Assembly (NCBI GenBank): GCA_965215635.1
Contig: CBDCEA010000005.1
Span: forward strand, 325,491-389,490
Source: Alphaproteobacteria bacterium
GTDB taxonomy: Bacteria; Pseudomonadota; Alphaproteobacteria; SP197
DNA: 64,000 nt
Direction of reading: 5' to 3'
The position numbers were made by a program, and so were the translations under genes. The notes beneath the pieces were generated by a model, which worked only from the letters and a program-made list of their open reading frames with translations, ran no database searches and was not told the origin of the DNA. This document shows positions 50,839 through 64,000 of the stretch, piece after piece. Every line of letters starts with the position of its first letter. Position 1 is the first letter of the stretch.

Positions 50839-52935
50839 ATGCCTCTTTCGACCCTCTTGACGAATCTTCGGCGCGCACTCTATCCGGAAAGCATCTGTTA
50901 CATCGGCGGTTCCTTTCTCGAGCCCGCCATCAGGGCGACCAGGAGGCTGGGATTCGACGGGGATGTCCGGATCATCAATCCGAACAGGAACGAGATCGCG
51001 GGCGAGCCCTGCCTCGATTCCATCGACGATCTCGATGCCCCGCCCGATGTCGCTTTCCTGGCGGTCAACCGGGAGGCCACCAACGCGCTCATCCCGAAAC
51101 TCGACGCCATGGGTGCAGGCGGTGCCGTCTGCTACGCGGCAGGCTATGCAGAGGTTGGAGGCGAAGGACTGGCGTTTGAAAGCGAACTGAAGGAACGGGC
51201 GGGCGATCTCGCCGTCATCGGACCCAACTGCTACGGATTCAACAATTTTGCCACCGGTGCCCTTGCGATGGCCACACCGACCCTGGGAGAGAGGACGGCA
51301 AGGGGTTGTGCCTTCATCGGACAGAGCGGCAACATCTGCATCAGCATCGCCAACGGGCGGCGCGGAACCCCGCTCACGCACGTCATCTCGTGCGGCAACC
51401 AGGCCGTGCTTGATTTTGCCGATTACATCGAGGTGCTGGTCGACGATCCGGCGGTGACCTCGTTTGCCCTCTTCATGGAAACTCTCCCCGATGTTGCGGG
51501 GTTCAGCCGGGCGGCCGTACGGGCTCTCGAGGCCGGCAAGCCGATCATCGTCCTCAAGGCGGGTGTCTCCAGGATGGGGGCGAACATGGCCATGAGCCAC
51601 ACCGCGTCCCTTGCCGGCGATGACGGATTCTATCAGGCGCTCTTCGACAGGCTGAACATCATCCGCGTGGAAACGCCTGTCGATCTCGTCGAAACGGCAA
51701 AGGTGGTCACGGTGACGGGCATTCCCGAAGGGCGCCGCCTCGCCGTCTTCACGTGTTCGGGCGGTGATTCGGAATGTGTCGCCGATATCGTCGAACCACT
51801 GGGCATGGAATTCCCGGAACTCGACCAACGTCAGCGCGAGGACATCGCCGGGCACATGCAGGTCTTCACCACCATCGCCAATCCCCTCGACTACAACACT
51901 TCCAACTGGGGACGAAGGGACGTTCTGGAGAATATGTTTCCGGTCCTGCTTCGCGAAAGGGTCGATGCCGGACTGCTGGTGGTCGATACGATTTCCGATT
52001 CGGAACTGCCTCCCGGGATGAAGGGCGACGGGGCCGAAGCAGCCATGCTGGCGCTCAGGGACTCGGCGCACCAGCACGATGTTCCCTGTGTCATCACCTC
52101 CTCCCTGCCGGACAACATATCCCTCAAACTCCGCAGGGAGATGCACGACGCCGGCATCGCCATGACGCATGGCATTCGGGCCGGAACGCTTGCCCTTGCG
52201 AGGACCTGCCTCTATGGCGAAGCGCGACAGCGTCTGGCGGCCCGGAAATCTCCGGATGATCTTGCGTTAGCGCCTGTCGCGCCCATCCGCGGCAGCGTGC
52301 GGACCTGCGACGAACAGGAAAGCAAGCAATACCTCGCCAACGCGGGACTCCGGGTGCCGGAAGGCGAGGTCACCACGGCCGCAACCGCATCTGCAGCCGC
52401 CGAACGAATCGGCTTTCCCGTCGCGCTGAAGGTGCTGTCGGCCGATATCGCCCACAAGACCGAAGCCGGGGGCGTTGCCCTCGATCTCCACACTCCCGGA
52501 GACGTGGAACGTGCTGCACACGACATCGGGGCCCGGACAGGCGTCGATCGCCTTCTGGTCGAATCCATGGTGAAGGGCCATGTGGCGGAGATGATCGTCG
52601 GCATCACGCGTGACGACGCGTTCGGACCGGTGCTCGTCATCGGTGCCGGCGGCACGTTCGTCGAACTCTACAGGGATTCGGCGACCCTTTTGCTCCCGGT
52701 CGTCGAGGACGATGTCCGCAGCGCCGTCGACCGCCTCAAGGTCGCACGCCTTCTCGACGGCTACCGGGGGGCACCGCGGGGCGATCGCGAAGCCCTTGTC
52801 GAAGCCGTCATGGCGGTGGCGTCCCTTGCCGAAGTAGAGCGCGACCGGCTTGTGGAACTCGATATCAACCCGCTCCTTGTCATGCCCGAGGGCATGGGCG
52901 TGATCGCGGCCGACGGCCTTCTTAGAATGATCTGA
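50839..52935 (+). CDS. ADP-forming acyl-CoA synthetase (fused CoA-binding/succinyl-CoA-synthetase-like alpha + ATP-grasp beta domains; Acd family)
   Basis: N-terminal CoA-binding Rossmann domain (…VIGPNCYGFNN…), C-terminal ATP-grasp; 698 aa. Confidence 0.85.
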   Translation: MPLSTLLTNLRRALYPESICYIGGSFLEPAIRATRRLGFDGDVRIINPNRNEIAGEPCLDSIDDLDAPPDVAFLAVNREATNALIPKLDAMGAGGAVCYAAGYAEVGGEGLAFESELKERAGDLAVIGPNCYGFNNFATGALAMATPTLGERTARGCAFIGQSGNICISIANGRRGTPLTHVISCGNQAVLDFADYIEVLVDDPAVTSFALFMETLPDVAGFSRAAVRALEAGKPIIVLKAGVSRMGANMAMSHTASLAGDDGFYQALFDRLNIIRVETPVDLVETAKVVTVTGIPEGRRLAVFTCSGGDSECVADIVEPLGMEFPELDQRQREDIAGHMQVFTTIANPLDYNTSNWGRRDVLENMFPVLLRERVDAGLLVVDTISDSELPPGMKGDGAEAAMLALRDSAHQHDVPCVITSSLPDNISLKLRREMHDAGIAMTHGIRAGTLALARTCLYGEARQRLAARKSPDDLALAPVAPIRGSVRTCDEQESKQYLANAGLRVPEGEVTTAATASAAAERIGFPVALKVLSADIAHKTEAGGVALDLHTPGDVERAAHDIGARTGVDRLLVESMVKGHVAEMIVGITRDDAFGPVLVIGAGGTFVELYRDSATLLLPVVEDDVRSAVDRLKVARLLDGYRGAPRGDREALVEAVMAVASLAEVERDRLVELDINPLLVMPEGMGVIAADGLLRMI

Positions 52936-52948
52936 AGGGAAGTTTTTC

Positions 52949-62340: not shown

Positions 62341-63086
62341 CCGGCTGCGCCGATCTTGCGATCTGGCTGTCCACGGCGCATACCGCCATGGTCGAAATCG
62401 CCCGCGATCTCGGTTTCCGGCGCGTCGTGCTCGACATCGAACACGGAATCTTCGACCTCGAACGCCTGGACAGGCTGGTGCCGTTCGCGCGGGCGCTGGA
62501 CATGGAGGTCCATGCCAAGGTTCTCGGTCCGGAGGCCATCCCTATCCAGCAGGCACTCGATCTTGGATGCGACAGCGTCATCATTCCCCACGTCGAAGGC
62601 CTTGATCACGCCTCGGTCACCTGCGCGTCCGCCAAGTACCCGCCTCTTGGTTCACGCAGCTTCGCCGGAGGCAGAACCGTCGCCTACGATGCACCGCCCG
62701 ACGGCTGGTTCGAGGCCGAGAACCGGCGCCAGCACTGCTATCCCATGATCGAAAGCGCGGCGGCGCTCGCCGACATCGAAGCAATCCTGGCGCTCGACAC
62801 GGTGGACGGGGTGTTTGTCGGTCCGTCCGATCTCGCCCTCTCGTGCGGCCGGGACCGTTATCGCTTCTCTGCCGAGGACCGCAGGGACCTCGAGACCATC
62901 GCCCGCGCGGCATGGGCCGCAGGCAAGCCGTGGATCATGCCGGGCTGGACGGCCGAAGAGCGCCGCCTCGCCCGAACGCTGGGCACGGCCTGGATGGTCG
63001 TCGCTGACGAAACGGGTTCGATCCATGCGGGCCTTTCGGCCACACTGGCGGCCATCGACGGCGAAACGGGAGCATCGCGACCATGA
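62337..63086 (+). CDS. HpcH/HpaI-family 2-keto-3-deoxy-acid aldolase
   Basis: ATGA overlap with RraA-like gene; TIM-barrel aldolase blocks (…VVLDIEHG…IESAAALADIEAILALDTVDGVFVGPSDL…). Confidence 0.8.
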   Translation: MTGCADLAIWLSTAHTAMVEIARDLGFRRVVLDIEHGIFDLERLDRLVPFARALDMEVHAKVLGPEAIPIQQALDLGCDSVIIPHVEGLDHASVTCASAKYPPLGSRSFAGGRTVAYDAPPDGWFEAENRRQHCYPMIESAAALADIEAILALDTVDGVFVGPSDLALSCGRDRYRFSAEDRRDLETIARAAWAAGKPWIMPGWTAEERRLARTLGTAWMVVADETGSIHAGLSATLAAIDGETGASRP

Positions 63087-64000
63087 CGGCGCGCACCACG
63101 GGAGAGGCCCTGATCCATCTTCTCGAGGGCTATGGCGTCGACACGGTCTTCGGCATGCCCGGCGTCCATACCCTCGATTTCTATCGCGCGCTCCCCGAAA
63201 CCGGTATCCGCCATGTCGGCGTGCGCCACGAACAGGGCGCGGGCTTCATGGCGGACGGCCACGCACGAGTTACCGGACAGCCCGGAGTCTGCCTGCTGAT
63301 CAGCGGTCCCGGCGTTACCAATGCGGCGACGCCGATCGGCCAGGCCTACTCGGATTCACAGCCCATGCTGGTGCTGTCTTCCGTCGGCAGTCTGGGCGAC
63401 CTCGGCATGGGGCGCGGAAGGCTTCACGAAATCCCCGACCAGAGGGCCGTGACCGCGCCGATCACGCACTTCAGCGAAATAGCCATGACACCGGGCCAGG
63501 CGATGGAACTGGTGCACCGCGCCTTCGCCCACTTCGCATCGCAACGCCCGCGCCCGTGCCACATTTCAGTTCCGCTCGATGTGCTCAACCAACCCTTCGA
63601 AGGCAGCATCGAAGCAGCGCACCTGCCGGACCGTCCGTCTCCCGACGGCACGGCACTCGATGCAGCCGCTGCACTTGTCTCCTCGGGTGGCCCTGCGGTG
63701 ATGATCACCGGCGGAGGCTCTCTGGGCGCGGCCGGTGAGGTTCGTGCGCTCGCCGAGCGCCTCGGTGCCGCCGTCATTCCGACGATTGCCGGCAAGGGCG
63801 TGTTGCCGGCCGATCACCCGCAGTCGCTCGAGATGACACTGGATCAACCGGCAACGCAGGCCTTCATCTGCGAGGCAGGGCTCGTCATCGCCATCGGCAC
63901 CGAGCTTGCCGAACCCGATCTCTGGGCGCCCGAAGCGCTCCCGATCACCGGCAAGCTCATTCGCATCGATATCGATTCCGGAACACTCGCCCGGGACTGG
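63083..64000 (+). CDS. thiamine-pyrophosphate-dependent enzyme, paralog of 55736-57358 (3' end beyond window)
   Basis: Not in ORF track because it has no stop in window; frame read manually: MTARTTGEALIHLLEGYGVDTVFGMPGVHTLDFYR… ATGA overlap with HpcH gene. Confidence 0.8.
   Translation, partial: MTARTTGEALIHLLEGYGVDTVFGMPGVHTLDFYRALPETGIRHVGVRHEQGAGFMADGHARVTGQPGVCLLISGPGVTNAATPIGQAYSDSQPMLVLSSVGSLGDLGMGRGRLHEIPDQRAVTAPITHFSEIAMTPGQAMELVHRAFAHFASQRPRPCHISVPLDVLNQPFEGSIEAAHLPDRPSPDGTALDAAAALVSSGGPAVMITGGGSLGAAGEVRALAERLGAAVIPTIAGKGVLPADHPQSLEMTLDQPATQAFICEAGLVIAIGTELAEPDLWAPEALPITGKLIRIDIDSGTLARDW

Follow-up and report, generated by a model that had tools for sequence, protein, structure and literature searches.

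The nearest described counterparts of the genes treated here belong to several separate systems. In the arginine transaminase pathway of Pseudomonas aeruginosa, the thiamine pyrophosphate (TPP)-dependent decarboxylase AruI is partnered by the transaminase AruH, and its homolog in S. meliloti, IlvB1, prefers 5-amino-2-oxopentanoate sevenfold (PMC7268258). Enzymes of the AruI family are promiscuous toward cationic 2-oxo acids. Histamine dehydrogenases (3K30, 6DE6) and trimethylamine dehydrogenase (TMADH; 1DJN/2TMD) are flavoproteins of FMN, [4Fe-4S] and ADP-binding-like architecture; both characterised histamine dehydrogenases oxidise agmatine too, and saturation mutagenesis of Asp354 in the Rhizobium enzyme tolerated no substitution (PMC10180351). 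Further points of reference are dimethylarginine dimethylaminohydrolase (DDAH; EC 3.5.3.18) and the arginine dihydrolase ArgZ, the HpaI/YfaU/GarL aldolases, the 4-hydroxy-4-methyl-2-oxoglutarate/4-carboxy-4-hydroxy-2-oxoadipate (HMG/CHA) aldolase, and the carnitine/gamma-butyrobetaine route with its crotonase CaiD. Here, we compare with these systems a catabolic region of twelve genes, which extends from 49.3 kb to the end of a 64,000-nucleotide stretch (hereafter, the window) of contig CBDCEA010000005.1 from an alphaproteobacterium (assembly GCA_965215635.1) and encodes, among others, an amine dehydrogenase-like flavoprotein, a DDAH-like hydrolase and two TPP enzymes. On balance, though by no means firmly, the region is best read as an assembly of catabolic units that were inherited separately and serve the breakdown of nitrogen-rich cationic compounds, and not as one pathway.

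Genes were defined by listing and translation of open reading frames (ORFs) and by a gene call based on GC content at third codon positions (GC3) in DNA of 62% GC, while families were assigned by Pfam and NCBIfam scans, the equivalog and subfamily cut-offs being those of NCBIfam. Coordinates are window positions (Table 1), with source-contig positions given where the window end cuts the last gene; L-numbers are labels of compared loci. All twelve genes are intact, as are all window ORFs, which also carry coding-type GC3 bias, and at least five transcription directions occur among the genes. The ORFs named in the initial annotation all exist, intact, in the families given there, but a short-chain dehydrogenase/reductase (SDR) gene had been overlooked. 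None of the genes passes an equivalog-level NCBIfam model of a characterised pathway enzyme, and two subfamily-level models only, NF005712 and NF005451, are passed. Annotation and literature searches returned no characterised operon with matching gene content, literature searches on the gene combinations and key names found neither module described, and annotated plasmid records with homologs of the DDAH-like and HpcH-like proteins give generic product names only; the earlier statement that the pathway is not assignable thus stands.

The evidence for a composite comes primarily from synteny. Homologs of the flavoprotein, designated HADH as a member of the histamine-dehydrogenase family, were collected from one genome per GTDB species, and the resulting 80 loci were scored by tblastn with the twelve window proteins. 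The left-hand genes, namely the major facilitator superfamily (MFS) transporter, acyl-CoA synthetase (ACS), enoyl-CoA hydratase (ECH), SDR, DDAH-like, first TPP enzyme (TPP1) and class II aldolase-like (ALD2) genes, were recovered in close relatives only (about 88% identity), and the right-hand genes, comprising a periplasmic binding protein (SBP), RraA-like and HpcH-like proteins and the second TPP enzyme (TPP2), in none of the 80. Four close relatives are devoid of the right block. In two of them (L088, L089), the order is MFS-ACS-ECH-SDR-DDAH-TPP1-ALD2, variable insertions (a DUF2779 gene or a branched-chain-type ATP-binding cassette (ABC) transporter), flavoprotein, helicase, holC and pepA, with the stops of the flavoprotein and of the NERD/UvrD helicase lying 11 bp apart. 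Since the helicase gene following TPP2 in the window genome is the ortholog of this helicase (74% identical), the same gene bounds both arrangements, and therefore the 4.3 kb SBP-RraA-HpcH-TPP2 block (60.5-64.7 kb) represents an insertion or deletion at that junction. One other relative, L170, has the block; it shares ALD2, HADH, SBP, HpcH and TPP2 with the window, its RraA gene being fragmentary. The single pathway suggested at first for the whole cluster is thus hard to reconcile with a right-hand block that is conserved independently and absent at this site in close relatives, and at least two, probably three, separately inherited modules appear to be present in place of one cluster. The same junction is disturbed in a sister assembly with identical cluster proteins (L002, 18984-21623), where the helicase gene next to TPP2 is shortened to 120 aa and has genes for a reverse transcriptase (RVT_1), an unknown protein and a serine recombinase behind it, which marks the junction as a mobile-element hot spot.

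Independent conservation of the right block was traced on the contigs and annotated plasmids that carry homologs of its HpcH-like protein. This revealed a fixed eight-gene operon composed of a GntR regulator, two permeases, a binding protein, an ATPase, RraA, HpcH and TPP genes, which is found beside TraG/TraU conjugation genes in P. aeruginosa, on a Shinella plasmid, on a Rhizobium plasmid and in Mesorhizobium shangrilense; in P. aeruginosa, it is followed by genes for a beta-lactamase-fold protein, an aldehyde dehydrogenase and OprD. Cultured carriers include the P. aeruginosa isolate of assembly GCA_050045555.1, Shinella sp. WSC3-e and M. shangrilense. The order RraA-HpcH-TPP with overlapping or nearly overlapping ends is common to the window (61642-64696), L171, L172, L175, L178 and L179. 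RraA and HpcH genes always form an overlapping pair, with TPP next in six of the seven loci examined, the exception being a Kordiimonas locus (L177) having a CN-hydrolase gene between RraA and HpcH and no TPP gene. In L171, a metagenome-assembled genome (MAG), the SBP-RraA-HpcH-TPP block stands alone, headed by an SBP homolog of 77% identity and with an HpcH protein of 76% identity. Neither the window nor L171 has GntR or a complete ABC transporter upstream of the block, the binding protein being the only component there, and their SBP subtype differs from that of the operon, with no match at E<1e-20 and at least 70% coverage. TPP2 is 54-56% identical to the operon TPPs (L172, L175, L178, L179) and 70% to that of L171, while TPP1 is 47-49% identical to the operon enzymes. 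The right block is a cut-down copy of the widespread eight-gene operon, and TPP2 the ortholog of its TPP enzyme. On the Shinella plasmid (L175, 1-3400), a second pair of RraA and HpcH family genes, divergent from the eight-gene operon, is accompanied by an NAD(P) oxidoreductase and a TcuA-like FAD dehydrogenase, and RraA/HpcH pairing may be a general two-gene unit.

The proteins of the block resist assignment by name. SBP scores 81 against a cut-off of 582 and 80.7 against 636 with the PotD/PotF equivalogs and thus does not pass them; its matches to PotF and SpuD/SpuE reach about 85-89 bits. No cognate permease or ATPase was found in the window or within ~7 kb downstream, and the only ABC system in the window is of dipeptide type (1.1-6.8 kb). 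SBP homologs of ~40% identity accompany HADH homologs in 13 loci. The RraA-like protein remains below the NCBIfam aldolase models (119 vs 179; 102 vs 304). It shares the Pfam family and the Asp with HMG/CHA aldolase; in comparison with 3noj, the metal ligand Asp124 is kept as Asp119, whereas the adjoining catalytic Arg123 is replaced by Thr118, an Arg (Arg116) occurring two residues earlier. Thr occupies this position (x-T-D) in all six operon RraA homologs. In the HpcH-like protein, the metal ligands Glu (PMIES) and Asp (GPSDL), which align to those of YfaU and GarL, are kept in at least 90% of 120 homologs. The catalytic Arg of these aldolases (YfaU R74 / HpaI R70) is not shared: its position is Ala60 by phmmer and Lys61 by MAFFT, neither alignment placing an Arg there, while Lys61, adjacent to or at this place, is present in at least 90% of 120 homologs within the conserved motif a-K-V-L-G-P. 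With the catalytic Arg missing from both proteins, ordinary pyruvate-aldol cleavage is therefore not to be assumed, and the initial count of three working aldolases is not borne out for these two. TPP2 passes the '5-guanidino-2-oxopentanoate decarboxylase' subfamily model NF005712 (612.5 vs cut-off 500) and carries the motif GDGG...WDN.

TPP1 passes the same model (589.6 vs cut-off 500) with the TPP-binding motif GDAG...NND. Both enzymes thus share with AruI and IlvB1 the NF005712 subfamily, the TPP-binding GDG...N(N/D) signature and the catalytic Glu motif, but unlike in the AruI pathway, no aruH-type transaminase, aldehyde dehydrogenase or guanidinobutyrase gene is adjacent to either; TPP1 pairs with DDAH-like and class II aldolase-like genes and TPP2 with RraA-like and HpcH-like genes. 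The two TPP enzymes are 47% identical to each other, and the class II aldolases at 57362 and 14009, both of the PRK07044 subfamily, are 45% identical. At 45-47% identity, recent tandem duplication of the TPP and aldolase genes was rejected. The paralogy noticed earlier for both pairs (55736/63083; 57362/14006) is real, but not the "modular duplication" deduced from it, since besides this divergence TPP2 groups with the operon enzyme; the pairs are old paralogs brought together and not local duplications.

The DDAH-like protein shares its fold families (PF19420 and PF02274, both above cut-off) and His and Cys motifs with DDAH and ArgZ of the guanidino-group-modifying enzyme superfamily, while its scores against the corresponding models and structures reach only 47-82 bits: 82.3 vs 300 for NF045659, 72.6 vs 340 for NF045660, 68.8 vs 450 for NF045658, and 47 bits for the best solved relatives. 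It belongs to a distinct and strikingly conserved family, 70-90% identical across orders; a homolog search at E<=1e-10 returned 4766 proteins, of which many reach 70% identity or more. His198 (YVHID) and Cys293 (GGGGVHCM) are invariant in an alignment of 10 diverse homologs and, from their motif positions, are expected to be the catalytic pair. A metagenome scan provided 80 more loci, analysed by tblastn and neighbour clustering, in which DDAH-like homologs are accompanied by PotA-type ATPases with matching permeases and binding proteins (18 loci), SDRs (13), LysR regulators (11), AruI-like TPP enzymes (9, mostly divergent and adjacent) and M20 N-carbamoyl amidohydrolases (9), with arginase-fold proteins and class III aminotransferases found as well; plasmid homologs are arranged in LysR / ABC transporter / amidohydrolase-DDAH units. 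These neighbours suggest that guanidino or ureido compounds are taken up and hydrolysed. In other genomes, PotABCD-type transporters, amidohydrolases, M20 carbamoylases and AruI-like TPPs are the usual company of the DDAH-like protein. Together with the AruI subfamily scores, this gives contextual support to the guanidino/amine theme proposed in the initial annotation.

Among the remaining left-hand genes, ACS is far below every NCBIfam equivalog cut-off. ECH has proteins annotated as carnitinyl-CoA dehydratase for its best solved relatives but does not pass the CaiD model NF002936 for crotonobetainyl-CoA hydratase (303.6 bits vs cut-off 500). As in the carnitine route, a crotonase adjoins an acyl-CoA-forming enzyme, and an acyl-CoA dehydrogenase occurs in the related locus L128; activation in that route is of CaiB/CaiC type, whereas the window has an ADP-forming synthetase and neither a carnitine dehydrogenase nor a betaine transporter. 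The class II aldolase-like protein (PF00596, 156.9; NF005451, 290.2 vs cut-off 207) displays HSH and NHG motifs of a His-rich metal site and has 3ocr, adducin and the decarboxylase NovR for solved relatives; FucA/AraD equivalogs are far below cut-off, and a sugar-phosphate substrate is therefore not implied. The main evidence that the left genes may work together comes from the distant metagenome locus L128, which contains homologs of DDAH (70% identity), TPP (55%), ECH (53%), ALD2 (47%) and ACS (44%), the ECH homolog adjoining the ACS gene, with an SDR not detectably orthologous and the acyl-CoA dehydrogenase nearby. The orientation ALD2 / TPP | DDAH is the same there as in the window and recurs in L093 with a LysR gene inserted; divergent DDAH-TPP adjacency is seen in L100, L120 and L135.

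The flavoprotein was assigned earlier to a TMADH, dimethylamine dehydrogenase (DMADH) and histamine dehydrogenase family, and this family stands, with the histamine dehydrogenases closer than TMADH: full-length alignments to 3k30 (Nocardioides simplex, E=1.9e-235) and 6de6 (Rhizobium sp., E=5.2e-230) are stronger than that to 1djn (E=4e-165), and identity to the two characterised histamine dehydrogenases is roughly 55%, estimated by eye over printed alignments. The three-domain architecture, an old yellow enzyme (OYE)-like FMN barrel, a Rossmann-like domain and a second alpha/beta domain, is present. Residues listed in PMC10180351 were located in the window protein with the help of the printed alignments and of 120 homologs aligned by MAFFT. 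The 6-S-cysteinyl-FMN Cys is Cys31 (VPHCNG), its column being kept in 119 of the 120; the [4Fe-4S] ligands are Cys342, Cys345, Cys348 and Cys360 (CIGCNMC...C); and the Tyr168, His171, Asp264 triad with Arg222 and Trp261 is invariant in all 120, so that all catalytic features shared by histamine dehydrogenase and TMADH are retained. The pocket differs. Compared with histamine dehydrogenase, both specificity positions are altered, Phe72 by a 2-residue deletion that takes out its equivalent and Asn110 by a change to Tyr109; moreover, Phe176 is Leu, and the Asp354 (Rhizobium) / Asp358 (Nocardioides) equivalent is Ala352. This last position holds Ala or Ser in every homolog of 74% identity or more, and Asp in most of those below 70%. 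Of the TMADH aromatic bowl Tyr60/Trp264/Trp355, which binds the methylammonium group, only the Trp264 equivalent Trp261 is kept, with Gln61 and Ala352 at the others. Conserved catalytic residues beside a changed pocket point to a catalytically competent family member that is unlikely to be a histamine/agmatine dehydrogenase or TMADH, and identification as a true enzyme of either kind was rejected on the pocket residues. The sub-family and substrate-residue check proposed at the outset hence places the protein on the histamine dehydrogenase side with an altered pocket, and it speaks against TMA, DMA or histamine as the substrate, with the aromatic bowl absent and the essential Asp replaced.

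Homologs of the flavoprotein are found in varied surroundings. The islands around those of 70-80% identity contain OpuAC, TauD, PutA, a sulfatase, several Rieske oxygenases and OYE/FadH-like flavoproteins. In one such locus (L013, 1-21000, with a 79-80% homolog), the flavoprotein and a divergent class II aldolase share an island with four Rieske oxygenases, a sulfatase, three further flavoproteins (two OYE/FadH-like with Fe-S, one TcuA-like), PutA and an Lrp regulator, as read by eye from translations outside the Pfam scan; the content suggests betaine or N-methyl amine catabolism for this clade. Roseobacter-type loci (L046, L051, L057, L059, L061, L070, L075, L081, L087) contain two or three tandem flavoprotein paralogs, accompanied by PotABCD-type transporters, TetR regulators, cupins and amine oxidases. 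A signature of its own marks the second copy, in which the Gln60 position is Tyr as in TMADH (Tyr60).

From gene content, families, catalytic-site residues, synteny and independent conservation, all of which are observed directly, we infer every substrate and every reaction order in the following scheme. Unit A (49.3-58.1 kb: MFS, ACS, CaiD-like hydratase, SDR, DDAH-like, TPP1 and ALD2) would most likely degrade a guanidino or amino-alkyl compound, the DDAH-like enzyme hydrolysing an amidino or guanidino group by a Cys-His mechanism and TPP1 forming an aldehyde by decarboxylation of a 2-oxo acid whose side chain is cationic, while a derived acid could be converted to a CoA thioester by ACS, hydrated by ECH and oxidised by SDR. 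In unit B (58.3-61.6 kb), the flavoprotein, followed by the PotD-like binding protein, may oxidatively deaminate or dealkylate an amine to an aldehyde and would probably pass electrons to electron-transfer flavoprotein (ETF), as its relatives do; the amine is expected to be one without a second cationic group, not histamine-like, because the pocket aspartate is Ala. Unit C (61.6-64.7 kb, with the binding protein shared) is a truncated operon copy that would end in TPP-dependent decarboxylation of a 2-oxo acid; its two "aldolase" subunits have non-canonical active sites.

Several observations weigh against this partition. In the window genome and no fewer than three relatives (L088, L089, L170), unit A adjoins HADH, L011 shows at least ALD2-HADH, and pairs of A and B genes also meet in distant loci (DDAH with HADH in L099 and L141; SDR with HADH in L020 and L041, the SDR homologs there being 53% identical); because of this adjacency and these links, A and B may be one functional unit. 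Besides, a class II aldolase neighbours HADH homologs in eight of the 80 loci and is divergent-adjacent in L005; links between the left module and the flavoprotein exist, if sparsely. HADH-SBP-HpcH-TPP2 are contiguous in L170, and units B and C could be cooperating. Among distant loci, L128 alone holds most of unit A. Aminotransferase, aldehyde dehydrogenase, ETF and ABC permease/ATPase genes are all absent from the region, with no aminotransferase gene between 49.3 and 64.7 kb, and any complete route therefore needs genes located elsewhere.

The links just listed are also what speaks for one dedicated pathway, in which the twelve genes would act on a single methylated or guanidino amine through uptake, oxidation, amidino hydrolysis, C-C steps and CoA activation: the genes are contiguous with short gaps, five of them are shared between the window and L170, and cross-links of components recur in unrelated loci. 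Nevertheless, close relatives carry unit A and HADH without the right block, this block exists alone or as a self-contained regulated operon in other phyla or classes, the left module is confined to close relatives among the 80 HADH-anchored loci, and the genes have five transcription directions, which makes a single pathway decidedly improbable. The opposite extreme, no joint function at all, supposes that a hot spot beside the NERD/UvrD-type helicase gene gathered unrelated and partly decayed catabolic fragments. Junctions do vary among relatives (DUF2779, branched-chain-type ABC transporter, right block present or absent), mobile genes are inserted nearby in the sister assembly, the right block is without its regulator, permeases and ATPase, and the RraA gene of L170 is fragmentary; but with window ORFs all intact and of coding-type GC3 bias, catalytic motifs conserved and unit A kept in a distant lineage, we regard this as very unlikely indeed.

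Two further alternatives assign the locus to known chemistry. Quaternary amine or betaine catabolism would have ACS and the CaiD-like hydratase act on a gamma-butyrobetaine- or carnitine-like acid and the flavoprotein serve as a TMADH/DMADH-type N-demethylase of released methylamines. It draws on the best model of ECH, crotonobetainyl-CoA hydratase, on the OpuAC/TauD/Rieske/sulfatase/OYE-FadH/PutA islands around HADH homologs of 70-80% identity and on a Rieske oxygenase gene ~2 kb beyond TPP2, yet the CaiD score is well below cut-off, the TMADH bowl is not kept (Gln61 and Ala352 for Tyr60 and Trp355), the locus has no OpuAC-type binding protein, and known betaine routes involve neither a DDAH-like enzyme nor AruI-like decarboxylases, so that this reading is unlikely. 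A variant arginine-transaminase/agmatine pathway, with the flavoprotein as a true histamine/agmatine dehydrogenase turning agmatine to 4-guanidinobutanal and TPP1 as a 2-ketoarginine decarboxylase, fares hardly differently and is quite unlikely: the very strong matches to both histamine dehydrogenases with agmatine activity, the AruI model passed by both TPPs and the DDAH-like enzyme with urease genes nearby are set against replacement of the non-substitutable Asp354/358 by Ala352, deletion of the Phe72 loop residue, absence of aruH-type aminotransferase, kauB-type aldehyde dehydrogenase and gbuA-type guanidinobutyrase genes at the locus and the preference of the S. meliloti AruI homolog for another substrate (PMC7268258). 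Within the composite, separately inherited organisation favoured here, it is conceivable, albeit doubtful, that two undescribed pathways are involved, one uniting DDAH-like, AruI-like and class II aldolase-like enzymes with a CoA-dependent, beta-oxidation-like branch for host or environmental guanidino compounds in a sponge-associated alphaproteobacterial lineage, the other being the horizontally spread RraA/HpcH pair, without the canonical catalytic Arg in either partner, performing non-canonical C-C chemistry upstream of a TPP decarboxylase on a substrate outside all described pathways.

The result mainly corrects how the region is read, namely as a patchwork of known families with two conserved uncharacterised modules and a pocket-variant amine dehydrogenase. 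The names 'trimethylamine dehydrogenase', 'dimethylargininase', '5-guanidino-2-oxopentanoate decarboxylase' and 'aldolase' are not to be taken for substrate assignments here. If the modules were worked out, functions would be obtained for three widespread protein groups now annotated by family name only, that is, the DDAH-like family, the histamine-dehydrogenase-like clade without the histamine-binding Asp and the RraA/HpcH/TPP operon, and it could become apparent which nitrogen compounds of their hosts marine symbionts use.

Table 1. Genes of the catabolic region and the urease genes upstream of it, in window coordinates.
Feature	Coordinates	Strand	Family evidence and arrangement
MFS transporter	49354..50610	+	Pfam MFS_1; upstream of left module; position kept in L088, L090
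ADP(NDP)-forming acyl-CoA synthetase (ACS), fused alpha+beta, 698 aa	50839..52935	+	CoA_binding_2 + Succ_CoA_lig + ATP-grasp_5
Enoyl-CoA hydratase (ECH), CaiD-like	52949..53764	+	ECH_1; best model NF002936
SDR	53937..54710	-	adh_short, adh_short_C2; just downstream of DDAH-like gene, co-directional
DDAH/arginine-deiminase-superfamily hydrolase, 303 aa	54721..55632	-	PF19420, 85 bits
TPP enzyme 1 (TPP1), AruI-like 2-oxo-acid decarboxylase subfamily	55736..57358	+	NF005712; divergent from DDAH-like gene
Class II aldolase/adducin-like (ALD2), PRK07044 subfamily	57362..58120	-	PF00596; convergent with TPP1, divergent from flavoprotein gene
Histamine-dehydrogenase/TMADH-family FMN + [4Fe-4S] amine dehydrogenase (HADH), 686 aa	58340..60400	+	PF00724 + PF13450/PF07992 + PF22620
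PotD/PotF-like periplasmic binding protein (SBP)	60483..61589	+	SBP_bac_8, SBP_bac_6; RRRF (Tat-like) signal
RraA-like protein	61642..62340	+	PF03737; stop overlaps HpcH-like start
HpcH/HpaI-family protein	62337..63086	+	PF03328, 66.5 bits; stop overlaps TPP2 start
TPP enzyme 2 (TPP2), 537 aa	63083..64000	+	NF005712; cut by window end, reaches ~64696 on source contig
Urease structural genes (fused UreA/B, then UreC)	46789..49196	+	Pfam families on L001; upstream of left module, context

The length and end of TPP2 are taken from three ENA metagenome-assembled contigs that carry the exact TPP1 sequence; beyond TPP2, they continue with the convergent UvrD-like helicase gene and then the Rieske oxygenase gene. 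An Rfam scan of 44-64 kb returned no riboswitches, the guanidine riboswitch included, and a promoter/terminator scan gave nothing above shuffled expectation, so transcription units are not definable from it. The upstream side of the left module is formed by urease structural genes, a DUF192 gene and an Mrp antiporter operon. The urease region (46160-49196) consists of the fused UreA/B gene and UreC preceded by the DUF192 gene, and no accessory ure genes were seen adjoining the structural genes in the window. DDAH-type hydrolysis releases no urea. The urease genes serve as context and are at most possible members of the module, their synteny with it being seen in close relatives only (L090). 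In the neighbouring Mrp operon, an MnhE-like gene (43285-44343, minus strand) has an N-terminal extension weakly matching a DDE transposase domain, which may be a fusion or an artefact of ORF calling.

The closest named relatives are uncultured Alphaproteobacteria MAGs, and the window comes from an uncultured alphaproteobacterium that is probably associated with sponges. The MAG RHO1_bin_48 encodes a close relative of the flavoprotein. Farther to the left, a second catabolic island (8430-23578) comprises hydantoinase/oxoprolinase A and B subunits (15529-19634), a ketol-acid-reductoisomerase-like gene, a PhyH dioxygenase, three SDRs, DUF1989, a hydrolase of metallo-beta-lactamase (MBL) fold and an MFS transporter, and it is this island that holds the class II aldolase paralog (14009-14758). 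Between the two catabolic regions lie an IS66-family transposase (24932-26155, plus strand) and a Fic/DOC-family protein (32436-33710, minus strand). Eukaryote-like proteins with ankyrin repeats are characteristic of symbionts that live in sponges and other hosts; one of 728 aa, encoded at 26223-28406 on the minus strand, combines many such repeats with a bacterial SH3 domain.

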